A stretch of DNA of 44,996 bases from assembly GCA_964510695.1 (NCBI GenBank), contig CAZEBV010000001.1, positions 1-44,996 of the forward strand. The letters are read 5' to 3'. The notes below the pieces were generated by a model. It did no database searches and had not been told where the DNA came from. It worked only from the letters and a program-made list of their open reading frames with translations. This stretch comes from an uncultured bacterium. Lineage in GTDB: Bacteria; T1Sed10-126; CAZEBV01. Positions 2,224-31,244 of the stretch are shown one piece after another (the first letter of the stretch is position 1; every line of letters begins with the position of its first letter). A program made the translations under genes and the position numbers.

Positions 2224-2243
2224 GGGTCGCCTCCCGGAGGAGA

Positions 2244-2257
2244 TTTACGCGCGTAAA
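2244..2257. repeat. Palindrome TTTACGCGCGTAAA, copy 1 (perfect)
   Basis: Lies in the 44-bp gap between the capsid stop (2268) and the next ATG (2223). Confidence 0.8.
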
Positions 2258-2267
2258 CGCGGGCCGA

Positions 2268-8102: not shown

Positions 8103-9551
8103 TCAGTCCCCGAATCGGAGGTCCGACACGTGCGACCCTTCCCCGGATCCGAACATCTCGATCAGCTTTTTGACGGCGTAGACGTGGGCGTCCAGCCGAT
8201 CGGGGGACCAGTCCGAGCCCTGGGTCCACTTGATGAGCTGCTCCTCGAGCTCCTCCAGGACGCCGACGTGGTGCAGCCGTTCGTGACGGTTGTAGAGCAC
8301 GTCCACGTCCCCCGCCCGCAGCAGCTTCCCGCGTTTCGCGTTCACGTCGTCAAAAGCCACGTTCGGGTCAATCGAGAGGATGGTCGATGCCACCATGTCC
8401 CCGCCGAAGTTTGTCTCCCCGACGATCCAGTCGGCCTCCAGGTCGTGATATAGCTCCACCGCCGCCGACCCCCACACGGAGGGCTTGCCCTTCAGGGAGT
8501 AGTCCTCGGGGGTGTAAAATTCGCCGTCGAAGCCGAAGGCGTCCGCCACGATGCCGGCCTCGGCCCCCTCCTCGGATCCAGGCGGATCCACGCCCACCAC
8601 CACGCCTCGGTAGGCGGGGGTCTCTGAGGTCTTCACTCGCAGCTCGTCGATTTGCTCCTGGGTGGTGATGGCGTTCTCGCCGGCGTCCTTCGGCGGGTCC
8701 TGCTGGTACTTCGACAGCCAGACGCGCCGGGGGATGTCCTGTCGGGTCTCGACCAGCTCCTCGAGGGGCATCAGGGTCGGGTTCAGCGCCTCCCCCGGAT
8801 CCCGCGGGTCGTGGACGTTCTGGCGAGCGTTCTCCTCGGTCTGGATGGCCGGGAAGTTGAGGACCTCCCACTTCTCGCCCTCCTCCTCCAGGAGCCAGCC
8901 CGCCAGGTCGTTCACGTCCCACCGCTGCATGAGGAGGATCACCGTCGCCCCCTTCTTGCGGCGGTCCCACAGTGTCCCGTTCCACCAGCGCCGGCGGCGT
9001 TCCCGTTTGACCCGGCTCATGGCGTCCTGCTCGTTCTTGATCGGGTCGTCGACAATGATGACGTCCCCGTGGAAGCCGGTGATGCCGCCCTTCATGCCGG
9101 TCGAAAGCATCCCGCCCCCCTCGACGGTGCGAAACTCGGACACGCCGGCGGCGTCGGGGTTCAGCTGGACGTCGATGTCGGGGTTGTCCCTCAGCTCGTC
9201 GCGCACCTTGCGGCCGTAGTGGTGGGCCAGGTCGTCCGAGTACGAGGTCCCGATGATCTCCCAGTCCGGCCAGGTGTCCAAAATCCAGCACGGCGTGCGG
9301 TGAAAGATCAGCTCGCTTTTGCCGTGGACGGGGGGCATGTTCAGCATGAGCCGGCGACCGCCCTCGAGGATCGCGTCCTGGACGATCCGGGCGATGCGCT
9401 TCAAATAGGCAAAGTCCCCGTCGGCCCGCCAGACGCCCCCGGAGGTTCGCTCGGCGTGGTTCGATAGGTCGTCCGGGCCGAACTGGGAGGGGTCGGTGGG
9501 TTCGACGCGGGAGCGAAACAGGCTCGCCCCGCGCTCTTTCAGATCATCCAT
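8103..9551 (-). CDS. terL: Terminase large subunit
   Basis: Walker A-like MPPVHGKSE, Walker B VIIVDDP, and a C-terminal nuclease-type VVGVDPPGS segment. Sits upstream of the portal gene. Confidence 0.9.
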   Translation of the reverse strand: MDDLKERGASLFRSRVEPTDPSQFGPDDLSNHAERTSGGVWRADGDFAYLKRIARIVQDAILEGGRRLMLNMPPVHGKSELIFHRTPCWILDTWPDWEIIGTSYSDDLAHHYGRKVRDELRDNPDIDVQLNPDAAGVSEFRTVEGGGMLSTGMKGGITGFHGDVIIVDDPIKNEQDAMSRVKRERRRRWWNGTLWDRRKKGATVILLMQRWDVNDLAGWLLEEEGEKWEVLNFPAIQTEENARQNVHDPRDPGEALNPTLMPLEELVETRQDIPRRVWLSKYQQDPPKDAGENAITTQEQIDELRVKTSETPAYRGVVVGVDPPGSEEGAEAGIVADAFGFDGEFYTPEDYSLKGKPSVWGSAAVELYHDLEADWIVGETNFGGDMVASTILSIDPNVAFDDVNAKRGKLLRAGDVDVLYNRHERLHHVGVLEELEEQLIKWTQGSDWSPDRLDAHVYAVKKLIEMFGSGEGSHVSDLRFGD

Positions 9552-10733: not shown

Positions 10734-10755
10734 GGCAGCCTACTCCCCAAGCAGG

Positions 10756-10769
10756 TTTACGCGCATAAA
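10756..10769. repeat. Palindrome copy 2, TTTACGCGCATAAA (one mismatch)
   Basis: Abuts the stop codon at 10770. Sits upstream of the small-gene/terminase block. Confidence 0.7.
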
Positions 10770-11150
10770 TCAGACCAAGGTCGCCCCGGGTCTGTTCAGG
10801 TGAGGCGGGGCGGCGTCATAGAAATGGAGCCAGTGGTTCTTGAGCTTGAATCGACGCATCACCAAAAAGAAGTCGGCGGGCGGACACATCACGAACCGCA
10901 AAAAATACCACGGCGGCATCAGCGCAAGCAGGTTCCCGGCGGCGTGATCGTCCATCTCGCACTCCATGGTGACCGTGACTTCCTGATCGACCGCGAAGTG
11001 ACCCTCGGGGATGGGCTCGAAGTCCGGGTCGGCCTCGGGCTCAAATCGTTCCCGATCGGCCTCGAGGACAAACGAATCCACCTCGGCGACGTTATCCATT
11101 CCGTCTCGGCCACCCATCCCGATCGGATCGAAACGGGGCCGCCCGCTCAA
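10770..11150 (-). CDS. Hypothetical protein
   Basis: 126-aa ORF. Start is uncertain (internal ATGs at 11117 and 11099). Stop abuts the palindrome at 10756. Confidence 0.45.
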   Translation of the reverse strand: MSGRPRFDPIGMGGRDGMDNVAEVDSFVLEADRERFEPEADPDFEPIPEGHFAVDQEVTVTMECEMDDHAAGNLLALMPPWYFLRFVMCPPADFFLVMRRFKLKNHWLHFYDAAPPHLNRPGATLV

Positions 11151-13208: not shown

Positions 13209-15152
13209 TCAGTACGCGATCGTCACGGAATTGTCCTCGACCCGGACGTACTGGCTGTTCCCCGGGTCCGATCGGTAGAGCCCCGCGGCGGGGGTGCCGG
13301 ACCCGTCGTGATGGTAGTAGCGGACCTCGGAGGGGTCGTCGGACTTGCTCGTGAGATCAACCGGCACCAGCCGGGTGGCGGTGAACTCGGCGGAACGGTC
13401 GCGCTCGTCAATCATCTTCGCACCGGTCCGGTCGGCGATCACTCCACGTACCAACGCCACCGAGGTGCTGAACGGGTTTAAGCTGTGGTCCGGATGCCAG
13501 ACCAAGAACGGCCTGTTGCCGTCCTTGTCAACCAGCTCGATGTTGATGTTCAGGTTCGAGTCGGGGCGCAACTTGACGTCGCCTCCCCGGATCTCCGCCC
13601 CGCCCGTCGACAGGATCTCCCCGTCCATGTCGAGGTCGTCCGAGAGCACCACGCCCCCGGTCGTGTTCCCCACACGATTCATTCCCCGCCAGTTCGGCAC
13701 CGACAGGGACGGGTGCCATCGGTTGCCGACGATGAGCCAATCCCCCAGACCGCCGCCGAGTCTTAGGGGGTCGCCCGTGTTGCCGTCCAGCGCGATCGTG
13801 TTGGAGGCGATCAGGCCGTCGCCCCCGCCGGCAACCTCAACCCCCACGTCCAAAACGTCTACCTGGTTCCCGACGAACTGGACACGATCGCAGTTGATGT
13901 AGGCCGCATGCGTCCACTGACCCCGGATGTCGTTCCCCACGATCAGCACGTCCCGACCGCTCCCTCCGGAGCTATTCAGACGGATGTCGATGGCTTCGCC
14001 GAGGGTCAGACCGGCATCCGTCTGGACCATCTCGTTGCCCCGGATCAGGACGTCGACGTAATTGTTCTCGTTGAGACCCCGGCCGAGGATGATGAAATTG
14101 TTGCAGTTCGCGTCGGGCAGGGCGCGGTTGTTCTCGATGATCCAGTGGCCGTTCACCGCCCCGGGATTATCCCTGGTCGCCCCGACGTGGGAACCGTTTA
14201 CGTGTGTGCCAAAAACGCAGTTCCGGACGGTCACGTAGTCGCCCAGTCGAGTGTCGTTCGGCTCGGTCACCTGGAAGGCGACGTGCCGGTCGTAGCCGTG
14301 CGTGAACCGGCACCCGAGGACCTGCACACGCTCCCCGGAGACCCCGACCCCCCGGTCTCCCACGTCGTCAAAGTGGCAGTCAATCACGTCCACGTACTTC
14401 GACTCGCGCAGGATGATCACGGCGGACCCGCCGCTGTTGTGCTCGTGATAGGGGTGGGTCCGTGTGAAGTAGCACCGCCGGATCTGGACGTCCTCGGCGC
14501 GGCGGATGTAGCAGCCGTGTAGCCGCTTCACGGTGTCGTCCTGATTGTCCGTGTTCCCATGGTAGCCCAGGTCCTCGATCGTCACACGATTCGCCCGGGT
14601 CCCGCCCAGCTCCCCCAGCCGGAAGCCCCCGACGTCAGCCCCGTCCTCGGGCTTTATGATCGTGTTCTGGCGGCCCGCGCCGCGGATCGTGACGTCGTCG
14701 GCGGTGATGTCCAGCCACTGCGAGGTGCGAAACGTCCCCGGGAAAAGGCGGATCGTCTCGCCGTCGGAGAGCTTGCCGATGGCGTCCTCCAGGGAGGGGC
14801 CATCGTAGACCACGTAGTCCGCCTCGGGGAACAGCTGGGCGGGGATCTCCGTGGTCACGACCTTCGAGCCCTCGGAGAAGTCGATCAGGCTGCCGGTCGT
14901 GGACCGATAGACCCGATCCCGGACCAGGTGCCCGTTAACGTCCAGGTGGCACCGGCTGATCTCCCACTCGTCGGCGGCGTTCGGGTTGCGAATGTACGCC
15001 CAGAACGCCTCGGCGACCGTCGGGTCGTCCCCGGCCGTGTTCGCCGCCTCCTGGAAGGTACGATACGACTTGTCCGTGACGGCCGTGAGCGGAAGCGAGC
15101 CGGTCCCGGTTTCCTTGGTGCGCTCATAGACGTTGTCGTAGAACGCGGTCAC
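13209..15152 (-). CDS. Tailspike / depolymerase with a right-handed parallel beta-helix (pectate-lyase fold)
   Basis: Repeated beta-helix rungs (VTIRGAG, VTIEDLGYHGN, VQIRRCYF, VDVIDCHF, VQVLGCRF, VTVRNCVF, WIIENN, VLIRGNE, VLIVGNDI, VQFVGNQV, LIASNTI). Confidence 0.8.
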   Translation of the reverse strand: MTAFYDNVYERTKETGTGSLPLTAVTDKSYRTFQEAANTAGDDPTVAEAFWAYIRNPNAADEWEISRCHLDVNGHLVRDRVYRSTTGSLIDFSEGSKVVTTEIPAQLFPEADYVVYDGPSLEDAIGKLSDGETIRLFPGTFRTSQWLDITADDVTIRGAGRQNTIIKPEDGADVGGFRLGELGGTRANRVTIEDLGYHGNTDNQDDTVKRLHGCYIRRAEDVQIRRCYFTRTHPYHEHNSGGSAVIILRESKYVDVIDCHFDDVGDRGVGVSGERVQVLGCRFTHGYDRHVAFQVTEPNDTRLGDYVTVRNCVFGTHVNGSHVGATRDNPGAVNGHWIIENNRALPDANCNNFIILGRGLNENNYVDVLIRGNEMVQTDAGLTLGEAIDIRLNSSGGSGRDVLIVGNDIRGQWTHAAYINCDRVQFVGNQVDVLDVGVEVAGGGDGLIASNTIALDGNTGDPLRLGGGLGDWLIVGNRWHPSLSVPNWRGMNRVGNTTGGVVLSDDLDMDGEILSTGGAEIRGGDVKLRPDSNLNINIELVDKDGNRPFLVWHPDHSLNPFSTSVALVRGVIADRTGAKMIDERDRSAEFTATRLVPVDLTSKSDDPSEVRYYHHDGSGTPAAGLYRSDPGNSQYVRVEDNSVTIAY

Positions 15153-15265
15153 GTCAGTCGGCCTCCCCGCGGGTCTCGACGTCCTCGATCACGTCGTCGG
15201 TGTCGTCGTCAGAGTCCCCTTCATCGTCCGAATCTTCGGAGGGCTCGTCCATCCTATCGGGGGTG

Positions 15266-15652
15266 TCAGGCACCACGGTCGGCCTCCTCCTGGGATTTCA
15301 GGGCCGCCACGACCGCGGCCCGTTCTCGAGATTCCGACCAGTGATACGTGCCACCAAAAACGTAGGCGTAGTAGACGTCCCCGAGTTCTGGATCAGGCCT
15401 TTGTTGCCAGCCCCAGCCGTCCCCGTAGCGCCCGGCGGCCGTCTCCAGCACGTCCAGCGCCTTGTCCGCGTCCTCGGTGGGATCGTAGGCCCCCTGCGGG
15501 AAATAGGCCTCGACGCGCTCGCCATCCTCGTATCGCTCCCAACCCAGCACGCCGCCCTCCTCGAAGGGCTCGAAGCCCATGAACTCGGCCGCCCGCCGGT
15601 CCAGGGTCTCGTCGACGACCTCGCGCCAGTCGGTGTCAGGCATGGTCCTCAT
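15266..15652 (-). CDS. Hypothetical protein
   Basis: 128-aa ORF with normal amino-acid composition. Overlaps the upstream gene by 17 nt. Confidence 0.6.
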   Translation of the reverse strand: MRTMPDTDWREVVDETLDRRAAEFMGFEPFEEGGVLGWERYEDGERVEAYFPQGAYDPTEDADKALDVLETAAGRYGDGWGWQQRPDPELGDVYYAYVFGGTYHWSESRERAAVVAALKSQEEADRGA

Positions 15653-16157
15653 CCCCCGACCCCAGCGGCATCCGTCCGGTCTCCAGGATCTCGCCCAGCG
15701 TGGCGGTGCCGTCCGGGGCCAGCATGTAGGGGAGAAGCGGCTGGGAGCCCGGCGCGAGCATCCGGAGGTTGTGCTGGTTCTCCAGGCACTCCCTCACCGT
15801 GTAGAGGGCCTGTTTTCGGGCCTTCTTCCGCTGATTCTCCGAGGGATCCTTCCGGTCCGGGTCGAAGGGCAGGGCCGCGACCGTCAGCTCCCCCGGGTTT
15901 CCGTGGATGGTGAACTCAATCACGTAGCCCTCTCGGGGCGGGTCGAAGGCGTTAAACGTGCCTCGCCGGATGGCCGAGACCACCCCGCCCAGCTTCTCGA
16001 CGGCCCGGCGGATGTCCGCCTTGAGCTGGCTTTCCGTTTTTTTGGTCTCGTGTCCGCGGACCCCGTGCTCCTGGGTGCTGGCCTCGCGGAAGAAGGGCAC
16101 ATCGACGCCGTTGGGGCCGTCCGTCTGCTCATCGTTGGGCTCGAAGCCAAACGCCAT
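15636..16157 (-). CDS. Hypothetical protein (first gene after the parB-adjacent palindrome)
   Basis: 173 aa. GAGAGGAGG SD before ATG 16157. Confidence 0.6.
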   Translation of the reverse strand: MAFGFEPNDEQTDGPNGVDVPFFREASTQEHGVRGHETKKTESQLKADIRRAVEKLGGVVSAIRRGTFNAFDPPREGYVIEFTIHGNPGELTVAALPFDPDRKDPSENQRKKARKQALYTVRECLENQHNLRMLAPGSQPLLPYMLAPDGTATLGEILETGRMPLGSGDEDHA

Positions 16158-16178: not shown

Positions 16179-16196
16179 GATTTACGCGCGTAAATC
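16179..16196. repeat. Palindrome copy 3, an 18-bp perfect GATTTACGCGCGTAAATC
   Basis: Overlaps the parB TGA (16195..16197). Lies 22 nt upstream of ATG 16157. Confidence 0.85.
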
Positions 16197-17778
16197 AAAG
16201 GTGTTCGAGGACGTAGTCGCGGATCGTCTCGTGGTCCTCCGGGTGTTCGGCCGGGGCGTGGTCTGTTTCGGCCACGTCGGGGACGTCCTCCTGACCGGGC
16301 TCGAGCTCTTTCGCCTCGAGGTACTCCGTCCAGTCGCCCCGGGTCGCCTCCAGGGCCGCCTCGTGAATGGAGCGAAGGTCGGCCGCATCCAGGCTCATCG
16401 TGAACAGGGCCCGGACGCTGTCGTTGCGACTCGACAGGCCAAGGGCCGGGCCCCGGAAGGTCAACACGCGGTTCAGCAGCTGCTCGGGGTCGTAGTGCTC
16501 CTCGGCCCATTGGGTCAGGGTCTCGAAGACGGCCTCGGGGTCCTCCCCGTGATTGTTCTGGTTCATGATCGAGAACTTGTTGTAGCCCCTGTCGTTGTCC
16601 TCGGGTTCCCAGCCGATCGCGCCGGCCAGAAGCTCCTCGTAGAGGGGCTTGGTGAAGTGCGTGCTGTCCAGGGCGGCCACCAGCCGCTCCCACAGCGTGA
16701 TGCCGACCTCGCCGACGTTGACCCGATCGGCCAGCACCTCGGCGAAGTGATCCACGTAGTTGCCCTTGATCTTGGTCCGACAGTCGGCCACCCGTTCCGC
16801 GACGGTGCGCTCGGATTGGCCGACGGACTCATCATCGTCGCTGCTCATGTAGTCCTCGTAGAGCTGGCGGGTCTTTTGCCACTCCTGCTCGAGCTCGCCG
16901 TCGAACTGACCCGACTCGAGCATCTTGAACGCCCGCTCGATCCGAAAGGACACAAGCTCATCCGCCTTGATGGCCTCCCGCACTGCGTTGGCCTGCCGGC
17001 GATGCCAGCGCTGGACCTGGTCCGATCGGTCCGCGTTCGTGATCCATTCGTAGTCGGCGACCTCGTGGCGGTGCTCATCCTCGAAGGCCCGGACGTCGTC
17101 GGGGTCGAACAGGATCTCGTGGTCGAAGTCGACCGACTCGAGGGGCATGACCCGCGGATCCTCCACCAGAAACCGCCGGGTGTGCCGATCGAGGATCCGC
17201 GTCGGCACCTCCTCCTCCACGATCGACTCGGCCAGGTCCCCGACCAAATCCTTCCCCAGCGGCACGACCTCGAGCAGTTCCCGGGCGTGGGTCGAGGTCA
17301 GCTTCCCCTCGTTGACCAGCTGCCGGACGCGCCCCGGCAGATCCAGGAGGCTCATCCGCTGGGAGATGTACCCGGGGCTGTAGCCGACCTCCTCGGCGAG
17401 TGCTTCCTGGGTCTCATACCACTCGAGCAGCCCGGAGAGGGACTGCGCCTCCTCGATCGGGGAAAGATCGTCCCGTTCCACGTTCTCCAACAGCGCCAGC
17501 TTCGCGGCTTCCTCGTCGGAGAGGTCCCGCACGGTCGCCGGGACGGCCTCGAGGCCAACGGCGGCCGAAGCTCGGTAGCGACGCTCGCCGGCGACGATCT
17601 GGTACTCGGCGGATCCGTTGGGGGCCGGGCGCACCAGAAGCGGCTGCAGGATCCCGTGCTCCCGGATGCTCTCGACGAGCTCCTCGTGGGCCTGTTCCCC
17701 GAAGTGCTGGCGGGGCTGGTACGGGTTGGGCTCGAGGGCCTCGATCGGGACGTCCTTAATGGTGGTCTCGTTGCTCAT
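16195..17778 (-). CDS. parB: ParB/Spo0J-family protein (CTPase-type N-domain plus HTH) with a ~330-aa unrecognised C-terminal extension
   Basis: Box I LVESIREHGILQPLLVR, Box II GERRYRA, Box III LLENVERDDLSPIEEA, HTH TQEALAEEVGYSPGYISQRMSLLDLP. Stop codon abuts an 18-bp perfect palindrome. Confidence 0.85.
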   Translation of the reverse strand: MSNETTIKDVPIEALEPNPYQPRQHFGEQAHEELVESIREHGILQPLLVRPAPNGSAEYQIVAGERRYRASAAVGLEAVPATVRDLSDEEAAKLALLENVERDDLSPIEEAQSLSGLLEWYETQEALAEEVGYSPGYISQRMSLLDLPGRVRQLVNEGKLTSTHARELLEVVPLGKDLVGDLAESIVEEEVPTRILDRHTRRFLVEDPRVMPLESVDFDHEILFDPDDVRAFEDEHRHEVADYEWITNADRSDQVQRWHRRQANAVREAIKADELVSFRIERAFKMLESGQFDGELEQEWQKTRQLYEDYMSSDDDESVGQSERTVAERVADCRTKIKGNYVDHFAEVLADRVNVGEVGITLWERLVAALDSTHFTKPLYEELLAGAIGWEPEDNDRGYNKFSIMNQNNHGEDPEAVFETLTQWAEEHYDPEQLLNRVLTFRGPALGLSSRNDSVRALFTMSLDAADLRSIHEAALEATRGDWTEYLEAKELEPGQEDVPDVAETDHAPAEHPEDHETIRDYVLEHL

Positions 17779-18476: not shown

Positions 18477-18926
18477 TCACGCCACGGCTTCGCTTCGATC
18501 CATCGGTTCGACCCGGGTGCCGATGCCGTTGGCCTCCCCGGGTACCTTCCGCGAGCAGACCTTCAAAATCTGCGTGTCGTCCTCGTACAGCACGCCCTCC
18601 AGGGCATCGTGCAGGACCTTGATCGGGTTCCCGACGTCCGCCATCGGGACCCCGGCCAGCGCCTCGCGGCTTCGGTGGCATCGCTTCAGGACGACCGTGT
18701 GCCACAGCGCCACCGGGTCCGGCGTCGGCTCGGTGATGCCACCCTGGTACGTCACGATCTCGGCCACCTGCTCCTTGTAGGTCTCGAACTCGGAGCTCGG
18801 ATACATCCACGTCCGCCCGTCCTGGTGGGTCATCCGATACGCCGCGTTCTGGCTCAGGTAGGGGAAGGAAAACTCGGCCGGCTGGAGGACGTCCCCGTCA
18901 GGCACGGACCGACCCCTCCCCATCAA
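18477..18926 (-). CDS. rusA: RusA-family Holliday junction resolvase
   Basis: DVGNPIKVLHDALEGVLYEDDTQI matches the RusA D-x2-N-x2-K-x3-DAL-x6-DD-x-Q signature. Confidence 0.8.
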   Translation of the reverse strand: MMGRGRSVPDGDVLQPAEFSFPYLSQNAAYRMTHQDGRTWMYPSSEFETYKEQVAEIVTYQGGITEPTPDPVALWHTVVLKRCHRSREALAGVPMADVGNPIKVLHDALEGVLYEDDTQILKVCSRKVPGEANGIGTRVEPMDRSEAVA

Positions 18927-19464
18927 CCAGGGCGAAGGCCCCGTCGCGCTTCACGACGTCGTCCTGCTGGTCGGCCATCGCCTCCAGGACGCGGGCCACC
19001 CGGTCGGCTTCGTCGTTCATGGCCAGCCGGTCCGCGACCGCCCGGGCCGTGGTCATCTCCTGCCCGTTGATGATGAGCATGTCAGACAGCCACGCCCGGA
19101 TCCGCCGGGCGAGCCGTTCGTTGTCCTCGAGGATCTCGCCCGACCCGTTCATCGAGGCAGAAACCCCACGGTCTCGGGGGGGGGCGTCCTCCTGGTCCGT
19201 TTCGGGGTCGCCGTCCGCGTCGTCGAGGTCGACGTCCTCCTGGTCCCACATGAGAAGCTCGTTCGGGCTGACCTCGAGGGCGAAGCACAGCCGGACAAAC
19301 GAGTCCAGGGCCGGGGAGTACCGGCCACCCTCATACTGCGAAATGCTCGGGCCGCTCGTGCCGGCCACCGTCGCCAGCTCCCGTTGGCTCATTCCCAGGT
19401 CATCCCGGCGCTGTTTGAGCATCCTGGACACACGCCCCCGGGCGTCGAAATCGGGCGGGATCAT
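18898..19464 (-). CDS. XRE-family HTH transcriptional regulator with an acidic linker and a C-terminal domain
   Basis: LGMSQRELATVAGTSGPSISQYEGG HTH. Start placed at ATG 19464 (ATGA overlap with the SLT stop); GTG 19509 is an alternative. Confidence 0.75.
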   Translation of the reverse strand: MIPPDFDARGRVSRMLKQRRDDLGMSQRELATVAGTSGPSISQYEGGRYSPALDSFVRLCFALEVSPNELLMWDQEDVDLDDADGDPETDQEDAPPRDRGVSASMNGSGEILEDNERLARRIRAWLSDMLIINGQEMTTARAVADRLAMNDEADRVARVLEAMADQQDDVVKRDGAFALVDGEGSVRA

Positions 19465-20030
19465 CGACGAACCACCCTCCGCGTCCCTCGAAGTCGGGTC
19501 CTCAGCCACTCGATCCGCTCGGCGATCTGATGCTCATACCACGCCCCGGCCGGGCTGGGCCCACCGGCATACCAGCACCGAAGCGCATAGGCCCCGCACC
19601 ACTCCATGCAGTAGCGCAGATACCGCACCCCCTGACGGAGGGCGTAGGCGTCGTCGGTGTTGTAGCGATTCGACCGGTACGGGTGCCGGCTGACCGTCCG
19701 GTGGGCGATGGGTGTCACCTGCAGGACCCCGGCGGCGCCGGCATGGGACGTGCGGGGGTTGTAGCTGGACTCCTGCCCGGCCATCGCCACGATCAGAAGC
19801 GGGTCGAGGTCGTGCTTCTCGGCCACGTCTCTGATCATCCGCGACCACCGCAGGCTGTGGCGGGGCGTAAAGCCGGGGCGCTCGACTCGGACGGCCCGGG
19901 CGATGCGGTGGGTCTCACGGAAGCTCTCCCAGCCGTGCGGGTGGCCCTCCGACGGACTCGCCAGCCACGACGCGATCAGGAAAGCGACCGCGAGGGCCAG
20001 CATCACGTAGATCGACCAGTGTGTTCTCAT
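19461..20030 (-). CDS. Membrane-anchored lytic transglycosylase (SLT domain)
   Basis: N-terminal TM (IYVMLALAVAFLIASWLA) and GQESSYNP ... AGAAGVLQVTP catalytic motif. Start at ATG 20030 with GGGGAGG leader. The upstream part of the 353-aa track ORF is Arg/Gly/Pro-rich and implausible. Confidence 0.8.
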   Translation of the reverse strand: MRTHWSIYVMLALAVAFLIASWLASPSEGHPHGWESFRETHRIARAVRVERPGFTPRHSLRWSRMIRDVAEKHDLDPLLIVAMAGQESSYNPRTSHAGAAGVLQVTPIAHRTVSRHPYRSNRYNTDDAYALRQGVRYLRYCMEWCGAYALRCWYAGGPSPAGAWYEHQIAERIEWLRTRLRGTRRVVRR

Positions 20031-20347
20031 CGTGCTCCTACCTCCCCAAGTAGATTCCCCTGTTCGAAGTCCTCCGGGTCCGCGTTCGCCAGCGGATCGT
20101 CCTCCCAGTAGAAGACCTTGTAGGCGGTGCCGTCCGGCGTGTGCTCCGTGCGGGCCTTGATCTCGGGGTACTCCCGGCGTATCTCCGACATCCGCGCCCG
20201 GGCCCCGCTGATCTCGTGGTAGAGCATCTGAAGTTCCTTGTAGCTGGCCTCCCCGATCTCCCGCAGATGACGGACGAGGGCCTGCTTCTGGCCGTACTCC
20301 CGCACGTCCTCCTCGGGGATGCGGTCGGGGTGGCGGTTCATTCCCAC
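20027..20347 (-). CDS. Winged-helix DNA-binding protein (putative)
   Basis: 106 aa. The ALVRHLREIGEASYKELQ ... RARMSEIRREY pattern looks wHTH-like. ATGA overlap with the SLT start. Confidence 0.5.
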   Translation of the reverse strand: MGMNRHPDRIPEEDVREYGQKQALVRHLREIGEASYKELQMLYHEISGARARMSEIRREYPEIKARTEHTPDGTAYKVFYWEDDPLANADPEDFEQGNLLGEVGAR

Positions 20348-20685
20348 TTCGGCCTCCCATCGGCGTCTTTGGTGTCGATGTGCTCAAACTCGTGGAGCCA
20401 GATTTCCTGATCCGGGACCCATCCTTTACGCGGGTGAATTTCCCGCCAGACCTCGCGGAATTCCTCAGGCGAATCCAGCCCCTCCTCGTGGTAGTGCTCC
20501 TGAGCCACGGTCTCAATCTCACACTTCCGCACGTCGAGCAACCGGACGAAACCAGCCGGTGTCCAGAGGATGTCCCCGGCCTTCCCGTATCGGCTGTTCC
20601 GGCTCGTCATGGTCTTTCGTCCGCTCTGGATCGCGTCGACGAAGCGGTCGTGAAACGGCAGGTCAGGGGGTTCGTGGTCGTCCAT
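20338..20685 (-). CDS. ASCH (PUA-like) domain protein
   Basis: FHDRFVDAIQSGRKTMTSRNSRYGKAGDIL resembles the ASCH N-terminal signature. Confidence 0.6.
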   Translation of the reverse strand: MDDHEPPDLPFHDRFVDAIQSGRKTMTSRNSRYGKAGDILWTPAGFVRLLDVRKCEIETVAQEHYHEEGLDSPEEFREVWREIHPRKGWVPDQEIWLHEFEHIDTKDADGRPKWE

Positions 20686-21672: not shown

Positions 21673-21833
21673 ACCACCCCTCCACTGCTCTCAAGGTGCG
21701 GGACTTCGACGTCGATCACCCGATACCAGCTCGGAAGGTCCTGCACGATGGGGTCACGGAAGCCGCGATCCCGGGCGTCGATGAGGACGTCGGACCGGCT
21801 CCACTTAGCCCGGGGGTAGTTGAGGGGCTTCAT
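21669..21833 (-). CDS. Hypothetical 54-aa protein
   Basis: Internal ATG 21833 forms an ATGA overlap with the ATPase stop. Its stop overlaps the next start. Confidence 0.45.
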   Translation of the reverse strand: MKPLNYPRAKWSRSDVLIDARDRGFRDPIVQDLPSWYRVIDVEVPHLESSGGVV

Positions 21834-23101
21834 GCTTCCGATCCCTCCTCGACCGGCTGGTGGCCGTCGTTGTAGTCGGCGGCCTCGCCTTCCTCGATCA
21901 CGACGCCCAGGTCGCCGGACTCGTCCACGACCTCGACCCACGCCTGAGCGCCGTATTGCTGGCACAGATCGTCGATGAGCCGGAGGTTCTCCCGGTCCCA
22001 ACGCGAGCCGTCCTTGATTCGGAGGACGCGGATGTCGGGGTTTTGGGCCATGGCGATGGCGACGGCGGCCCGCAGCTGTTCGGAGTCGGCCGCCTGCTCC
22101 AGGGGCTCGCCCTCGAAGGTCAAACCGTCCTCGGTGATCCCCAGGCCCTCCAGGGGAAGGTCGGCCGCCTCAATCGCGTCCTGCTTGGTCTGATCGAGGG
22201 ACTCGAGGTCCTCATCCAAGGACTGATGGCGCTGGCGGGCTGTCTCGAGTTCGGAGCGTTTCTCCTCGTAGGACTGGCGGGCCCGAACCTTCTCGTTGAT
22301 GTCCTCGGCCTGGTCGATCTGGTCCCGGATCTCACGGGCCTCCTCGCGGGTGGATTCGAGATTCGAGTCTGAAACCTTTTGCTCTCGAAGCTCTTTCAGA
22401 CGCTCCTCGAGCTCCCGGATCTCCTCACGGACGGCCTCCTGCTTCTTGATTTTCTTCTGAACCTCGTTGAGCTCATGGGAAAGCTCGGAGACCTTCACCG
22501 GCTCGTCGGGAAGGTCCTCCTCGTCGGGCGGGTCCATCTCCTCCAGGGCGCCCTCGAGTTTCTTGACGTCCCGGCCGGCGTCCCAACGCTTCTGGTAGAG
22601 CTCGTGCCGCTCGGTTTCGATGCGCTCCAGGTCGATCGGGAGGTCGATCGTCTGCAGCAGGGCCTCGCGCTTTTCGGCGGGGGTCATCCGCAAAAACGCC
22701 CCGGGGTCGAACATCAGGTCCCCGAGCTTGTCGTTCAACCAGGACTGCTCGGTGTCCTCGATCGGCGGGGTGTCTCCGACCGGCTCGATCGTAAGGCTCC
22801 CGTTGCCCTGGGTGCGCCACCGGCGGATGATCTTGTAGCGTCGCTGGCCGTTGCCGATCTCGACCTCGGTCTCGGCGGACGTCTCGCCCTCCCGGACCGG
22901 ACGATCGGGCACGGCCCGGCCCCCTCCCAGGGCGTAGTAGATCGCGTCCAGGACGGAGGATTTCCCTTGGCCGTTTCCGCCTGAGATCACCACGGCGCCG
23001 CTGTCGGGGTCCGGTTCGATCCCGATGGCCTTCACTCGCTTCACGTTTCGGATCTTGGTTCGGATCACTCGCATGCCGTCAACCTCTCCGTTCTCACTCA
23101 T
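21830..23101 (-). CDS. SMC/RecN-like coiled-coil AAA ATPase (recombination/replication accessory)
   Basis: Walker A GGNGQGKSSVLDAI, a long acidic coiled coil, and a C-terminal VLRIKDG Walker-B-like segment. Confidence 0.7.
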   Translation of the reverse strand: MSENGEVDGMRVIRTKIRNVKRVKAIGIEPDPDSGAVVISGGNGQGKSSVLDAIYYALGGGRAVPDRPVREGETSAETEVEIGNGQRRYKIIRRWRTQGNGSLTIEPVGDTPPIEDTEQSWLNDKLGDLMFDPGAFLRMTPAEKREALLQTIDLPIDLERIETERHELYQKRWDAGRDVKKLEGALEEMDPPDEEDLPDEPVKVSELSHELNEVQKKIKKQEAVREEIRELEERLKELREQKVSDSNLESTREEAREIRDQIDQAEDINEKVRARQSYEEKRSELETARQRHQSLDEDLESLDQTKQDAIEAADLPLEGLGITEDGLTFEGEPLEQAADSEQLRAAVAIAMAQNPDIRVLRIKDGSRWDRENLRLIDDLCQQYGAQAWVEVVDESGDLGVVIEEGEAADYNDGHQPVEEGSEA

Positions 23102-23131
23102 GGCGCGTCCCTCCGAGTCGTGCGGATTGGG

Positions 23132-23635
23132 TTACTCCTCATCGCTAAAGTCCAACCCCAGCTGCTCGCGGATGGACCGTTTGCTCTCATCGGCCGGTGG
23201 GGGGTCGGCGCTGTCGTCTTCCCCCTCATCGGGTGAAACCCCCTTTTCTGTATCTGTAGTACTTCTAGTACCTCCCCCGGACATCTGTGTCCGGGGGGTA
23301 TGGACATCTGTGTCCCCACCCCCCCGGACATGAGTGTCCGTCTGCCGCCAATCGGGCCGTGCGGGGTATATTCGGCGTTCATCGACCGCGCCTTCCCCAT
23401 CACGAAGGTAGGTCCGGTCCAGGTAGCCGAGCGACTCCATGTGCTCGATGTCCCGACGGATCGTCCGGACGCTGACGCCGAACTCCTCGGCGAAGGTTTC
23501 GTTGCCAACCCAGCAGTAACCTTCCTTCCGTGAGAGCGCCTCGATTCGGCCCCATAGCATCTTCTGTCGATCATTGAGGTCCTCCGCGTGATAGATCGGG
23601 GGTGATACCCAGCATCCGTATTGCTCGTCAGACAT
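23132..23635 (-). CDS. Putative replication initiator (N-terminal wHTH, low-complexity linker carrying iterons, acidic tail)
   Basis: wHTH ETFAEEFGVSVRTIRRDIEHMESLGYL. Three GGACA-N4-TGTCC repeats and an AT-rich tract lie inside the linker-coding part, the same layout as lambda O. Confidence 0.55.
   Translation of the reverse strand: MSDEQYGCWVSPPIYHAEDLNDRQKMLWGRIEALSRKEGYCWVGNETFAEEFGVSVRTIRRDIEHMESLGYLDRTYLRDGEGAVDERRIYPARPDWRQTDTHVRGGGDTDVHTPRTQMSGGGTRSTTDTEKGVSPDEGEDDSADPPPADESKRSIREQLGLDFSDEE
23244..23271. other. AT-rich tract flanking the iterons (candidate unwinding element)
   Basis: TTTTCTGTATCTGTAGTACTTCTAGTAC has 9 G/C of 28 nt by my count, in an otherwise GC-rich genome. Contains TAGTAC twice. 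Confidence 0.5.
23279..23339. repeat. Three iterons GGACA-N4-TGTCC (candidate replication origin)
   Basis: GGACATCTGTGTCC at 23279..23292 (extended to the 24-bp dyad CCCCCGGACATCTGTGTCCGGGGG) and at 23302..23315; GGACATGAGTGTCC at 23326..23339. Spacing is 23 and 24 bp. Confidence 0.65.
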
Positions 23636-23808
23636 CGGGTCCCTCCCGCAGCGCCCACAGTGAAAAACCGCTCATTTCCGGCTCCTTTCTACCCCACGTG
23701 TTGATCGACCGACCCACCCACAGGTCGGCTTTTCAGAGATCGAACATCCGGCCTGACCCCCTCTCAGGGGCCAGGTTGGACGCTCGCACGCCCACTCGGA
23801 GGAATGGA

Positions 23809-25230
23809 TCATGTGTCTTTGAGCTGGATCACCCCGTCCTCCGTCTGATACCCCACGTCCCCCTCGACCACGGCGTGAAGCGTGTCCGAGAGCCGCGAGA
23901 GGGCCGAATCCTTCATGTCGTGGGCTTCCATCGTTCGCCGGATGTCGACGATGCTGATGACGTCCGACTTGTCGATGTAGACCCCGACCGCCTGGAGGAC
24001 CGTGTTCATGTCCACGGTCTCGGGATCCTCGGAGGGTTCCTCGGGGGTTTCGCCCTCGACTTCCTGCTCTCCCGTGGGTTCCTCGGGGGTCCCTCCCGCC
24101 CCCTCCTGGGAGGTCAGGTGGTAGTGGCCGCACTCGCCGCACTCGTAATACCGGGTCTCCTGGCGGGCCTCGTTCCCACGATCGCGGGCCTCTTTCGCCC
24201 GTTCGAGGGCCTTCTCAGCGTCTTCCTCGTACTCGAAGGGGACCTTGCCGGTGGGGCAGGTGGCCTCACCGGACACGATCTCCGAGAGGCGTTCCTCGAT
24301 GGCCTTAATGACGGTCTTGCGCTGCTTGCTGGTCTGCTCGATCGACAGCGCCCGATACAGAAGCGTGGGATCGTCGGCGAGTCCGATTTCTTCCCGTGCG
24401 GGACCGGCGTTCTGGTCGACGATCTCGCGGGCCTGTTCCTCGAACAGATCGGGGGCGCTGGTGGAGGACTCCTCCTCGTCCGGGGCCTCGGCGTCCCCGT
24501 CGGACGCATCCTCCTCAGCGGCGTCCTCGTCGGTCTCAGACCCCATGTTTTTGAGGTCCTCGATCTGGCTCTCGACGCCGTTCCCGGAGGGCTCGTATTC
24601 AACGTCCCCCTCGTCGACCTCCTCCACGTCGTCGGGAACCATCGACTGTGCTTCGTCCGGGGTGTATAGGCCCTGGAGGACGTCCGGGAAGGCCTGGCGG
24701 AAAGCCCCGCCGATCGAGCGCCACTCAAGCATCTTGAGCGGATCCTGCCGCCAGTTGTATTTCTCAGTGAGGGGGATCACGCTCCCGTCCTGCTTGGTCT
24801 TGTACTTCTTCGCCCGGTTCAGGGTCCATGTTTCCGTGATCTCACTGAAACCGGCCCGCTTGACGTAGCAGGTGACCCGCATCGGGTCCCTCTCTCGCTC
24901 GATTCGCCAGTCCTCCAGCTCGCCCGTTTGAAGGGCCAGGGCGACCATCGTGCGCGGTTTCGTGGTGGGGTTTCCATTGATGGCGTCGATGCTCTGGAAA
25001 GCCTGCATGGGCGGAATCCCAAGCTCGCGGCCCTCCAGCATGATGACGATGGCCTGGGAGGCGTTTTTGATGCTGTCCGGGAGAAACCCCGACTGCACCA
25101 GGACGTCGCCGAACTTCTTGAGCTCGCCGACGCGGTCCGCCAGCTCGAAGACGTCGTGACTGTCGGGGAGCGCCAGTCCGGTTTCGTCGCCGGCTTCTTG
25201 CTGGATGGCCTTTGTGTTCTTGTTGCTCAT
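23809..25230 (-). CDS. RecT-like single-strand annealing protein fused to an acidic linker, a C4 zinc ribbon and a C-terminal domain
   Basis: The N-terminal ~200 aa (IVIMLEGRELGIPPMQAFQSIDAINGNPT...) resemble RecT-type annealases. Sits immediately after the YqaJ exonuclease. CPTGK...CGECGHYH cluster. Start at ATG 25230 with GAGGAG SD. Confidence 0.6.
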   Translation of the reverse strand: MSNKNTKAIQQEAGDETGLALPDSHDVFELADRVGELKKFGDVLVQSGFLPDSIKNASQAIVIMLEGRELGIPPMQAFQSIDAINGNPTTKPRTMVALALQTGELEDWRIERERDPMRVTCYVKRAGFSEITETWTLNRAKKYKTKQDGSVIPLTEKYNWRQDPLKMLEWRSIGGAFRQAFPDVLQGLYTPDEAQSMVPDDVEEVDEGDVEYEPSGNGVESQIEDLKNMGSETDEDAAEEDASDGDAEAPDEEESSTSAPDLFEEQAREIVDQNAGPAREEIGLADDPTLLYRALSIEQTSKQRKTVIKAIEERLSEIVSGEATCPTGKVPFEYEEDAEKALERAKEARDRGNEARQETRYYECGECGHYHLTSQEGAGGTPEEPTGEQEVEGETPEEPSEDPETVDMNTVLQAVGVYIDKSDVISIVDIRRTMEAHDMKDSALSRLSDTLHAVVEGDVGYQTEDGVIQLKDT

Positions 25231-25244
25231 GCCGATCACTCCTC

Positions 25245-26243
25245 TCAGTAGATGCGCGGATAGCGGGACTCGGTGGGCTCCTGCAGGTACTCCTCGTAGA
25301 GGTCGGGGTAATCCTGCTCGAATTGCTTGCTGTCGAATCGCTCATAGACGCGATGCACCTGGGTCACCTTTCGGGTTTCCCCGCGGACGTCCACGGCGAC
25401 TTTTTTGTCCTCGCCCGCGACCTCCATGATCCGGTTTTTGATGGCGTCCAGCTCATCCTCGGCCTCGTCCTTTTGCTCCTTGGCGTCGTCGTATCGCTGG
25501 ATCAACTCCGCCATCTCCCCGGCCTCCTCACCCTCCATTTTCCGCGGTTCGTCGCGGCTGGTGAGGTCGGGGAACCGATCCATGATGTGCTCGCGGGCCG
25601 CATCCGATCCGTCGACGTCGGGGGGCTCTCGGTCGATCACGCTCTGGACGAACGCCTGTTCCTCCCGCTCGATTCGTTCAATCAGCTCGTCGTCGATGGG
25701 GACTCGCCGGATCTGCAGGTCGTGGGACCCGATCAGCGCGGCCACCCAGGCGTGGTCGTAGCCCTTGACGGCACACTGGTGATGCACCTGGACGATCGTT
25801 CGGGCGGGTACGATTTCGGATCCCTCGGACCCGAACCACTCATCCTTCAGCCGGACGCTGGTGTTCTTGACCTCCAGGACCCCCACGCCGTCGGGGTGGT
25901 CGATGATTTCCCGGTCGACGTTGGCGGTCATCCAGTCATGCTCCTCGTGCTGGAGGACCTGGTGGCGGTTCTGGATCGTCCAGCCCATCTCCTCCGCGGC
26001 CAGCCGGGCGATAACATCCTCGATCTCGGTGCCGACGCGAACGGCCATGTTGTCGCTGAGGTCCTCGGGCTCCAGCTCGCCCGTCTTTTCGAGCCAAAGC
26101 TGGTACTCGGACTTCCAGGGGTTCACCCCGAGGACCGCGCTGGCGTCCGACGACCCGATGCGCGGATTGTCGGGGGACCCGGAACGGGCCCTGAGCCATT
26201 CGTCGTGAGTCATCTCCTGCCGGTTTCCGAGGGTGCGAGTCAT
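25245..26243 (-). CDS. YqaJ/lambda-Exo-type recombination exonuclease
   Basis: IGSSDASAVLGVNPWKSEYQLWLEKTG ... GVLEVKN matches the YqaJ family. Confidence 0.8.
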   Translation of the reverse strand: MTRTLGNRQEMTHDEWLRARSGSPDNPRIGSSDASAVLGVNPWKSEYQLWLEKTGELEPEDLSDNMAVRVGTEIEDVIARLAAEEMGWTIQNRHQVLQHEEHDWMTANVDREIIDHPDGVGVLEVKNTSVRLKDEWFGSEGSEIVPARTIVQVHHQCAVKGYDHAWVAALIGSHDLQIRRVPIDDELIERIEREEQAFVQSVIDREPPDVDGSDAAREHIMDRFPDLTSRDEPRKMEGEEAGEMAELIQRYDDAKEQKDEAEDELDAIKNRIMEVAGEDKKVAVDVRGETRKVTQVHRVYERFDSKQFEQDYPDLYEEYLQEPTESRYPRIY

Positions 26244-27878: not shown

Positions 27879-28085
27879 CTACCCCTGGAGTTCAAGCTCC
27901 TGTTTCAGGATTCGTTGCCAGGGCTTCGAGGGGGTGGCGTATCCGGTGAGCCACTTGCTAATTCGAGGCTGGTCTGTGTCGAGCTGGTCGGCAAGCTCCT
28001 CCTGGGTGAGACCGTTTTCGTCCATGTAATCTTGGATGGCTTCGCTCCAGTCGATCTCGTCGGCCATCGTGGACTCCGTTGACAT
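27879..28085 (-). CDS. Cro/CI-type HTH protein (Cro-like regulator or excision factor)
   Basis: NGLTQEELADQLDTDQPRISKWLTG HTH. GGGAGG SD. Divergent from the integrase gene. Confidence 0.7.
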   Translation of the reverse strand: MSTESTMADEIDWSEAIQDYMDENGLTQEELADQLDTDQPRISKWLTGYATPSKPWQRILKQELELQG

Positions 28086-28166: not shown

Positions 28167-28216
28167 CTTTTACGCGCTGTTTTGTGGGGGTTTCCGGGTG
28201 GGACTCGGTGATCGCC

Positions 28217-29338
28217 ATGAAGGGAAGCATCCAGCAGATCGAGCGTAAGACCAAGACCGTCCACCGTGCCCGCATCGACGTCCCGTCGCCGGACGAGGAC
28301 CGAAAGCAGATCAGCAAGACCTTCGACGAGGAGGGGGATGCGACGACGTGGCTGATCCAGAAGAACCACGAGATCAGCACGGGGACGCTGGTGACGCCCT
28401 CCGAGATGTCGATGAAGCAGTACCTCCAGAAGTGGATGGAGGATGAGAGGGACGCGATTCGCCCCAAGACCCACCAGAAGCGCCAGTGGGCCATGAACCA
28501 CATCCTGCCCGCCCTGGGGCACGTGGAGGTCGGGGATCTTACGCCCTACCACCTACAGACGCTTTACCAGGACAGGCTGGAGGACCTCGCGCCCAGCTCG
28601 GTGAAGAACCTGCACGAGATCCTGCACAACGCCCTGCGAAACGCCTGCCGGCTGGAGATCATCGCGGACAACCCGGCGAAGAACGTGTCCCCGCCCGCGA
28701 AGCCGGACCCGGATTTCACGGTCCTCGACGGCGAGCAGATCGAACGCTACCTGTCAGCCGCCCGGGGCCGGCGGTACTACCCCGTGCTTCTGACGCTCGT
28801 GATGACCGGCCTCCGGCGCGGCGAGGCGCTGGGGCTACGGTGGGAGGACGTCTCGCTGGATGAGGCGAGCCTGAGCGTGCGTAAGACGCTGGGGCGCACC
28901 GACGAGGGGCTGGGGTTGGGCGATGTGAAGACCGCCTCCAGCCGGCGCTCTGTGGCGCTCATGGAGGCCAACGTAAAGGCGCTTCGGGACTGGAAACAGC
29001 GCCAGCTTCAGGAGCGTTTGAACCACCCGGACCTGGCCGGGCGCTCCGAGCTGGTCTATACGACCTCGGAGGGTAATCCCGTCCACCCTCGAAGCCTGCT
29101 GAGGTCCCACAACAAGGTCGTCGATCAGGCCGACGTCCCCGACGTCACGATCCACGACCTGCGCCACACGCACGCCACGCAGATGCTCCGGAATGGGACC
29201 CACCCGAAGGTCGTCCAGGAGCGGCTGGGACACTCCCGGATCGAGGTCACGATGGACACCTACAGCCACGTTTTGCCCGGGATGCAGGAGGACGCGGTGG
29301 AGGCGCTTGAACAGTCGATGGGGGCGGATACGGTATGA
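28217..29338 (+). CDS. int: Tyrosine integrase
   Basis: Catalytic-region motifs LLTLVMTGLRRGE, HDLRHTHAT, LGHSRIEVTMDTYSH. Start set at ATG 28217 (MKGSIQQIERK). Confidence 0.9.
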   Translation: MKGSIQQIERKTKTVHRARIDVPSPDEDRKQISKTFDEEGDATTWLIQKNHEISTGTLVTPSEMSMKQYLQKWMEDERDAIRPKTHQKRQWAMNHILPALGHVEVGDLTPYHLQTLYQDRLEDLAPSSVKNLHEILHNALRNACRLEIIADNPAKNVSPPAKPDPDFTVLDGEQIERYLSAARGRRYYPVLLTLVMTGLRRGEALGLRWEDVSLDEASLSVRKTLGRTDEGLGLGDVKTASSRRSVALMEANVKALRDWKQRQLQERLNHPDLAGRSELVYTTSEGNPVHPRSLLRSHNKVVDQADVPDVTIHDLRHTHATQMLRNGTHPKVVQERLGHSRIEVTMDTYSHVLPGMQEDAVEALEQSMGADTV

Positions 29339-31120: not shown

Positions 31121-31131
31121 CTGGACCCCTC

Positions 31132-31145
31132 TTTACGCGCGTAAA
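31132..31145. repeat. Palindrome copy 4 (perfect)
   Basis: Lies between the stop at 31146 and the SD of the 46-aa TM gene, upstream of the holin. Confidence 0.8.
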
Positions 31146-31244
31146 TCACTGCCGGAACCGCCGCCAAACCCATCCGAGCCCGAAACTTACCGCGACGGTC
31201 CCGCCGATCAGCCCCCACAGTGGAGGAGGGATTTCTTTCACCAT
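31146..31244 (-). CDS. 32-aa single-TM mini-protein (tentative)
   Basis: MVKEIPPPLWGLIGGTVAVSFGLGWVWRRFRQ. Stop abuts the palindrome. No clear SD. Confidence 0.3.
   Translation of the reverse strand: MVKEIPPPLWGLIGGTVAVSFGLGWVWRRFRQ

Follow-up and report, generated by a model that had tools for sequence, protein, structure and literature searches.

An orphan ParB of an uncultured phage and a family of palindromes predicted to be its loading sites

The stretch of DNA analysed here, referred to throughout as the window, makes up the whole of contig CAZEBV010000001.1 (44,996 bp), assembled from an uncultured bacterium. A minus-strand open reading frame (ORF) runs across its joined ends (1..264 + 44956..44996) without a stop, ...KKDVLLTVS continuing into QGLGTQPL..., as would be expected if the genome were complete and either circular or circularly permuted; its completeness is what an earlier reading made from the sequence alone (hereafter the sequence-only reading) had supposed. 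Nearly all of the genes of this phage lie on the minus strand. One of them is an orphan parB (16195..17778, minus strand) encoding a 527 amino acid (aa) protein, designated P0001, and its TGA stop codon (16195-16197) shares two bases with the perfect 18-bp palindrome GATTTACGCGCGTAAATC (16179-16196) that the sequence-only reading had picked out. Related palindromes recur around the genome. We consider it likely, with a probability of roughly 0.6, that P0001 is a ParA-independent clamp of the ParB family, dependent on cytidine triphosphate (CTP), for which palindromes with the core TTTACGCGCGTAAA would serve as loading sites, in effect as a phage 'parS'.

The N-terminal part of P0001 is that of a conventional ParB. 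Residues 6-100 (17479..17763, minus strand) match the CTP-binding domain ParB_N (Pfam, E 3.7e-34) and residues 104-201 (17176..17469, minus strand) the DNA-binding helix-turn-helix (HTH) domain HTH_ParB (E 2.5e-17). The signature boxes that had been noted in the sequence are all in place: a QPR motif at residues 21-23, GERRYRA within ParB_N at residues 64-70 (17569-17589, minus strand) and ENVERDDLSPIEEA at residues 98-111 (17446-17487, minus strand). P0001 also clears the cut-off of the general ParB model TIGR00180 (170.6 bits, with 58.45 required). Across residues 1-200 identity to chromosomal ParB is ~40-50%, and the solved structures closest by sequence are chromosomal ParB/Spo0J and Noc. 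The top match in the PDB is Spo0J (6sdk, E 3.9e-44), with 1vz0 at E 1.9e-42 and KorB (8qa8, E 5e-17) far below Spo0J, and the GERRYRA and ENVER motifs of P0001 align to the nucleotide-pocket motifs of 6sdk, the Bacillus subtilis ParB. An AlphaFold2 model has a predicted local distance difference test score (pLDDT) above 90 across residues 11-210, and when this model was compared with the PDB using Foldseek, the top matches were ParB bound to cytidine diphosphate (ParB-CDP), Noc and KorB, the ParB/Noc DNA-binding domains included. By domain criteria (PF02195 plus PF17762, and TIGR00180), P0001 belongs to the ParB/Spo0J family and, judged by its domains and motifs, it is a bona fide CTPase-type ParB with a parS-binding HTH. 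The sequence-only reading had allowed that a profile search might instead reveal a nuclease or sulfiredoxin type lacking this HTH. Given the presence of HTH_ParB and the absence of any nuclease or methylase domain detectable with Pfam, we reject a ParB-like nuclease, a sulfiredoxin and a ParB-methylase fusion. The more specialised NCBIfam models (Noc, PRTRC-ParB, RepB and the ParB of integrative and conjugative elements) match the N-terminal part alone, with scores under their cut-offs; for the Noc model TIGR04285, P0001 reaches 179 bits where 315 are required.

No partner for a conventional partition system was found. The deviant Walker A motif (KGGxxK[ST]) is absent from all six frames of the window and a tblastn search of the window with a ParA query gave nothing better than E = 1.7, bearing out the earlier remark that the genome has no ParA. 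The ParA-activating peptide LG[KR]GL, present in 30 of 30 aligned canonical ParBs, is missing from P0001 and from its long relative P0122 (described below), and the strict form [LFI]G[KR]G[LFI] occurs in 92 of 122 ParB sequences and in neither of these two. PF23552, the usual C-terminal dimerisation and DNA-binding domain, has no match in P0001, and the canonical 16-bp parS TGTTNCACGTGAAACA has no match in the window with up to three mismatches allowed. P0001 is thus an orphan, with neither a ParA gene nor a ParA-binding N-terminal peptide, and it departs from the ParABS pattern in every respect that we examined: ParA, peptide, PF23552, and parS together with the residues that recognise it.

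What does recur in the genome is the palindrome family. The 14-mer core TTTACGCGCGTAAA has six matches in the window at three or fewer mismatches, compared with 0.35 expected from shuffled sequences, and the 18-mer has four at the same tolerance, compared with 0.01. The core is exact at 2244, 16181 and 31132 and carries one mismatch at 10756 and 39680; the sixth match (20425) has two mismatches, lies within a gene, and is doubtful and probably due to chance. We set aside three lone TTTACGC heptamers, at 19865, 21436 and 28169, none of them palindromic. Site 1 is the 18-mer on the parB stop codon (core from 16181), 23 nt before the next start codon. Site 2 (2242..2259; exact core 2244-2257) lies between the major head gene (2268..3281) and a gene for a 215-aa protein (1576..2223). 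Site 3 (10754..10771; core TTTACGCGCATAAA, 10756-10769) abuts the stop of the gene at 10770..11150, upstream of the terminase block, and site 4 (31130..31147; exact core 31132-31145) abuts the stop of a DUF5675 gene, upstream of a holin-like gene. Site 5 (39680..39693; core TTTACGCACGTAAA) lies between a Dit-like tail gene (39772..40290) and a gene for a 112-aa protein. All five good copies are intergenic, in short spaces separating genes of the minus strand; a TGA stop immediately adjoins three of them, and four have a start codon 11-23 nt downstream. Round the circle they are 8.5, 5.4, 15.0, 8.5 and 7.6 kb apart and, measured by the minimum gap between sites, this is more even than for five random intergenic gaps (P = 0.025).

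A further line of evidence comes from the recognition helix. In experiments by Jalal et al., the choice between parS and the Noc-binding site (NBS) was found to depend on four positions (173/179/184/201 in Caulobacter), which read RTAG in ParB and QKKR in Noc, and K171, S172, N178 and R204 were identified as conserved DNA contacts of ParB (PMC7383237). In P0001 the helix GYSPGYISQRMSLLDLP (17335-17385) and the segment STHARELL (17272-17295) lie within the HTH domain, both on the minus strand. The four specificity positions read P-R-D-T in both P0001 and P0122, not the QKKR of Noc; K171 is replaced by Y or C and N178 by Q in the two proteins, so that the equivalents of R173, N178 and G201 in P0001 are P, Q and T. 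This is a marked departure from the norm. Among the 120 closest ParBs, [KR]SR...N...RLL with GH[AG]R is near-universal (around 98 have [KR]SR and 106 have GH at the DNA-contacting positions), whereas xSPG with T[HD] is found in P0001 (GYSPGYISQRMSLL plus STHAR) and P0122 (GCSPGKITQRLKLL plus ATDAR) alone. A search with the HTH region among plasmid ParBs returned canonical types only. The absence of canonical parS from the window agrees with this rewired helix.

P0122 (542 aa) aligns with P0001 from end to end at 33% identity and is encoded on L001, a 4.4-kb phage-like contig. On L001 the sequence TAATTTACGCACGTAATCC overlaps the stop codon of the P0122 gene, just as site 1 does in the window. 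Its core matches the degenerate consensus of the window sites, TTTACGCRCGTAAA, at 13 of 14 positions and has the same 4-bp spacer between half-sites; from base composition, the chance of a match to TTTACGCGCGTAAA with two or fewer mismatches within 10 bp of a fixed point is ~7e-5. The next gene on L001 starts ~100 nt from the site. A tblastx comparison of L001 with the window found parB to be the sole homologous sequence, and as far as these two sequences go parB and its stop-codon site are conserved together as a unit. When IMG/VR was scanned for the exact 14-mer, 43 loci came back, and a P0001-type ParB was present at none; at one of them (L004) an ordinary ParB lies 8 kb from a single copy of the 14-mer, which we judged to be chance.

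Patterns drawn from the P0001 helix led to a third element, the 180-kb viral contig IMGVR_UViG_3300024243_000005, examined as the stretches L046, L051, L054, L057 and L071 (contig positions 33175-81145, L046 and L051 being identical). It encodes an orphan ParB of 315 aa with ParB_N, HTH_ParB and GERRWRA, lacking LGRGL, whose helix CSAGYISQRLSLLDLP is identical to the SPGYISQRMSLLDLP of P0001 at 13 of 15 positions. The locus is a replication module, with an SNF2 helicase, a PD-(D/E)XK nuclease, a DnaG-type primase, a PolA-UDG fusion and a sigma-70 region-4 protein, and the gene for the latter lies tail-to-tail with that for the 315-aa ParB. A test fixed beforehand, for TTTAC-N(0-8)-GTAAA, gave five exact matches in 20 kb of this phage against 0.02 expected, all five with a 3-bp G+C-rich centre and with no one-mismatch copies; over 48 kb there are 11 TTTAC-NNN-GTAAA sites. 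By tblastx, ParB is the only protein that the window and the 180-kb phage have in common, the best segment (57% over 35 aa) being the HTH region. At least three of the five sites examined lie inside probable genes. No lysogeny genes were seen in the sampled 48 kb, in which not every ORF was annotated.

Taken together, the sequences indicate that the site family co-occurs with the P0001 type of helix in three unrelated elements. Because the site is kept on the P0122 stop codon, because P0122 has the same helix rewiring and because helix and half-site are paired again in the 180-kb phage, the palindrome is a credible predicted cognate site of P0001, on grounds that go beyond adjacency to the gene. 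That P0001 does bind the palindromes we regard as the most probable part of the proposal, with the odds clearly in its favour.

In relatives of the 180-kb phage a different ParB-like protein occupies the equivalent position, with YGFCRFKA in place of GERRxRA and the helix PQSWVSYHYK (L058 4110..5138; L060 4188..5186; L068 4021..5106; L067 1..846). These stretches contain no TTTAC palindromes and no other over-represented palindrome, and as negative cases they speak in favour of the pairing of helix and site. As a separate observation, the stretch L048 has a perfect 18-bp palindrome, CCTACAAAATTTTGTAGG (9310..9327), ~220 bp upstream of an orphan ParB-like gene with the helix GKSQQYVSQRLKLLDLP; it is a single copy in 20 kb.

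Beyond the HTH, P0001 continues for a further ~325 aa (residues 202-527; 16198..17175, minus strand). This region is acidic and predicted to be all-alpha, and it stands where the dimerisation domain of a canonical ParB would be. The sequence-only reading could liken it to nothing, and database searches agree: residues 201-527 match no entry of NCBIfam, nor any of Pfam at a threshold as lenient as E = 10, the PDB sequence search yielded no match past about residue 220, and Foldseek matches for the full model against the PDB are confined to the N-terminal parts of ParB-family proteins. The AlphaFold2 models of the region are poor (pLDDT 30-70 and 46), making the all-alpha prediction one of low confidence. 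A phmmer search of 1.84 billion representative proteins found P0122 as the sole true relative, a match to the repeat protein P0121 being spurious, and a profile search of 5.8 billion clusters recovered P0001 and P0122 and no further proteins. When the C-terminal alignment was used to search IMG/VR, GTDB genomes and JGI metagenomes, no loci were found.

The surrounding genes place parB in the lytic direction of transcription. In order of transcription, tail, baseplate and lysis genes come first, interrupted by a plus-strand tyrosine integrase (28184..29338; phrog_1, E 1.2e-72) that confirms the integrase noted earlier. There follow genes for an HNH protein, RecE/RecT/SbcC-like proteins, an ASCH protein, an SLT-domain ORF, an XRE-type HTH protein (HTH_3; 18898..19509), RusA and a metallopeptidase, and then parB, after which come unknowns, terminase, portal and capsid. 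The gene thus closes the replication/recombination block, just before the late genes, in the long lytic transcription direction. The recombination block (21830..26243) comprises a RecE-like exonuclease, a RecT-like annealing protein that is unusually long (476 aa) and an SbcC/AAA_23-like ATPase, the only Walker A protein found in the window besides terminase. Adjoining the divergent integrase is a gene (27879..28085) for a 68-aa Cro-like HTH_3 protein, which has a weak HTH_ParB score (E 3.8e-5) and is probably part of a lysogeny switch. Neither Pfam nor PHROG gave a match for the products (173, 128 and 647 aa) of the three genes just downstream of site 1 (13209..16157); the one of 173 aa, encoded by the first gene after the site, is a candidate partner for ParB.

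The window is 66% G+C and its proteome is strongly acidic, with a median isoelectric point (pI) of 4.6 and a pI below 5 in 34 of 53 proteins; the products of 13209..15152 and 16195..17778 are examples. Since the ORF at 19464..20522 contains an SLT lytic transglycosylase domain, an acidic proteome of this kind suggests that the host is probably a 'salt-in' halophilic bacterium. On account of the same domain we rejected a haloarchaeal host, in which the palindrome might have been a TATA-like promoter. The phage itself is distant from those in culture: no matches came from comparing 14-20 kb of it with 50,697 phage records by megablast, and TerL, capsid and baseplate proteins are at most 37% identical to those of cultured phages.

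From what can be read directly in these genomes, namely domain content, the missing ParA and peptide, the rewired helix, and the site family with its co-occurrence, we infer DNA binding, CTP dependence, sliding and an output for P0001 along the following lines. Each HTH of a ParB dimer would read one TTTACG half-site through a helix altered at base-contacting positions. CTP bound at the GERRxRA/ENxxR pocket would then close the N-terminal gate, and the clamp would slide off the site. With five sites 5-15 kb apart on a 45-kb circle, loading could extend across the whole phage chromosome. The acidic and possibly all-alpha C-terminal region would, by analogy with the BisD protein discussed below, probably provide a second dimer interface and an effector surface. 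With parB standing last in the replication/recombination block and the late genes about to follow, the clamp is probably made in mid-infection, where it would act in cis on replicating phage DNA. As to output, our first choice would be that it controls or co-ordinates the blocks of late genes, like KorB and BisD, and a close second that it condenses or individualises replicated genomes before packaging. That the output is specifically regulatory is a tentative suggestion, made by analogy and with the balance of probability somewhat against it.

The sequence-only reading had drawn attention to further copies of the palindrome at operon junctions. The five good copies are indeed intergenic, but the importance given to the junctions is less secure, since A/T-armed palindromes are hard to fit into 66% G+C genes and the placement may reflect coding constraint. 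It is the 180-kb phage, in which at least three of the five examined sites lie in genes, that points to such an explanation. The sequence-only reading had also suggested a KorB-like silencing or timing of the structural operons, which we hold as no more than a possibility; by sequence, P0001 stands much nearer to chromosomal ParB and Noc than to KorB. Silencing in a lysogen seems to us less likely than a role in the lytic cycle, because parB lies in the lytic direction and because the related system of the 180-kb phage sits in a replication module.

Several observations weigh against the proposed clamp and its loading sites. The half-site spacer is 3 bp in the clade of the 180-kb phage and 4 bp in the window and L001, a difference that can be tolerated if each HTH binds its own half-site independently, as in ParB-parS structures. 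Two orphan ParBs with a partly similar helix, on L047 and L048, are not accompanied by TTTAC-NNN-GTAAA sites. Conversely, other large phage contigs (L072-L079; 16-198 kb), linked to the 180-kb phage by a 372-aa protein in common, carry one to four such sites per 11-20 kb, with no ParB gene in the stretches examined; belonging to the same clade as the 180-kb phage, they count as independent evidence neither way. The long C-terminal region is common to just two proteins, giving thin comparative depth, and with a low-confidence model for this region, the dimerisation needed by a closed clamp is an assumption.

Of the other explanations, the one that fares best is that the palindromes belong to another regulator, such as an XRE-type HTH protein (18898..19509 or 27879..28085), which would bind them as dispersed operators or roadblocks in the manner of stoperators, ParB being unrelated to them. 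The window does encode two HTH_3 proteins, and the position of all five sites in short intergenic gaps, four of them 11-23 nt before a start codon, is what might be expected of operators. Such a regulator would not, however, account for ParB being the only protein common to the window and L001, and again to the window and the 180-kb phage, when all three have the same half-site, nor for a site that keeps its place on the stop codon of parB genes whose products are 33% identical. The sites are, moreover, palindromic and parS-like, whereas the stoperators of Cluster A mycobacteriophages are asymmetric, and the location of at least three of five examined sites inside genes of the 180-kb phage does not suit operators either. 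We therefore consider this explanation unlikely.

Slightly less probable again is a true partition module of a plasmid-like prophage, in which a host ParA or an unrecognised motor would move ParB bound to dispersed centromeres, as in phage N15. P0001 is a ParB of the canonical partition type, a centromere-like site lies just downstream of its gene and the dispersed centromeres of N15 offer a precedent. Against these must be set the lack of both a ParA gene and an N-terminal ParA-activating peptide, the tyrosine integrase, and the presence of the same helix/site system in the replication module of a 180-kb phage that has its own polymerase and primase.

Least probable by far, and in our view hardly worth entertaining, is that the palindromes act as RNA, either as intercistronic hairpins (in processing, attenuation or translational coupling) or as terminators, for although they lie between cistrons and near ribosome-binding sites, their folding z-scores range from -2.6 to +1.3 with the minimum-energy fold ignoring the palindrome at two of five, they have no T-tract and no terminator-like match, A/U-rich stems of 5-7 bp are weak for a 66% G+C genome and on L001 the next gene is ~100 nt away from the site. 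There is also no sigma-70-like signal at the sites and no match in Rfam, leaving terminator and promoter readings unsupported and a role at the level of DNA as the better reading.

If P0001 and the palindromes do form a clamp and its loading sites, they have a wider interest. Work on ParB-CTP clamps that act beyond segregation is recent, its worked examples being Noc, KorB, VirB and BisD, and a single protein with a 14-18-bp site at five places in 45 kb makes a concrete testable pair, for which the 13-bp sequence TTTACGCCGTAAA provides a comparison duplex beside the 18-mer, the 14-mer core, the parS-c2 of Burkholderia cenocepacia and canonical parS. The 180-kb phage, with its 3-bp spacer and 11 sites in 48 kb, amounts to a natural variant system. 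Study of the two could extend the ParB/Noc specificity code and reveal the use that a virus makes of a clamp without ParA, and DNA labelling could gain another orthogonal ParB/parS pair from it. A new effector domain may reside in the 325-aa C-terminal region. A bolder and rather doubtful extension is that unrelated phages, among them the integrase-bearing halophage of the window and the clade of the 180-kb phage, share a ParA-less clamp with an ISQR-type helix that reads TTTAC half-sites every 5-10 kb and coats or marks the viral chromosome for purposes other than partition. Were this so, it would amount to a viral chromatin or self-marking, serving late transcription, the condensing or individualising of genomes, or the shielding of phage DNA.

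How does this system compare with those already known? Orphan ParB-fold proteins are common on mobile elements and phages, the known phage cases being mainly methylase/DUF fusions, P1 ParAB and an activator of thymine dioxygenases that lacks a DNA-binding domain (PMC12704722, PMC13229309). A 2025 survey recorded many orphan ParBs on mobile elements and phages, without assigning sites or functions to them (PMC12704722). Our literature search turned up no phage ParB that is of canonical type, lacks ParA and combines a specificity code of its own with genome-wide sites. The closest relatives by sequence are Spo0J and its parS, with which P0001 shares all the CTP motifs and a palindromic site close to the gene; unlike Spo0J, it is without ParA, the ParA-binding peptide and PF23552, has PRDT instead of RTAG, and is not accompanied by TGTTNCACGTGAAACA. 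By sequence it is a member of neither the Noc nor the KorB family. Noc is also a ParA-independent ParB paralogue, altered in specificity at the same four positions and with sites dispersed over the chromosome, but P0001 misses both the Noc cut-off and QKKR, and no membrane-targeting role is implied.

To turn to the sites themselves, B. cenocepacia chromosome II has a validated parS, gTTTATGCGCATAAAc (PMC7022226; PMC11109969), to which the core TTTACGCGCGTAAA is identical at 12 of 14 positions and with whose half-site one half of the window site at 10756 agrees base for base. The parS of V. cholerae chromosome II, NTTTACANTGTAAAN (PMC7022226; PMC11109969), and the KorB operator TTTAGCGGCTAAA have TTTA/TAAA arms in common with the core. 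The ParBs of these secondary replicons differ in having a cognate ParA and sites clustered near the origin, and are likened to P0001 by their sites alone. In P1 and F, parS is placed directly downstream of parB. Phage N15, as is proposed for the present genome, has dispersed ParB-family sites (IR1-IR4), and Ravin, Rech and Lane are said to have described in 2008, in J Bacteriol, how dispersed SopB sites, some of them near late-gene control elements, aid late gene expression. N15 differs in that SopA is present, the prophage is a linear plasmid and SopB is a type Ia plasmid ParB.

The two systems on which the suggested outputs are modelled are KorB and BisD. KorB of the IncP plasmid RK2 has its operator OB (TTTAGCGGCTAAA) at 12 sites on 60 kb and regulates at a distance by CTP-dependent loading and sliding (PMC11790492). 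Like P0001, it has a ParB N-terminal domain and HTH and, as is proposed for P0001, it uses a short TTTA/TAAA-armed palindrome at many dispersed sites. Unlike P0001, it has a ParA partner, IncC, as well as a peptide that binds IncC. It also depends on KorA or TrbA for locking, its C-terminal domain is unrelated, and its OB operator TTTAGCSGCTAAA is 13 bp rather than 14 bp with a different centre. BisD of ICEclc from Pseudomonas is a 550-aa protein in which a linker joins the ParB N-terminal part to an all-alpha C-terminal domain whose origin is unknown and which dimerises and is required for promoter activation; the protein loads at palindromes and spreads over ~50 kb (PMC12409273). It differs from the system described here in having two 23-bp bisS sites just 2 kb apart rather than dispersed ones, and in requiring BisC. 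Like BisD, an orphan ParB-like CTPase of an integrating element, P0001 is an orphan ParB on an integrase-bearing genome. Compared by architecture, the two are of similar length (527 and 550 aa), and they may also be alike in the region after the ParB N-terminal part, which a low-confidence model of P0001 predicts to be all-alpha.

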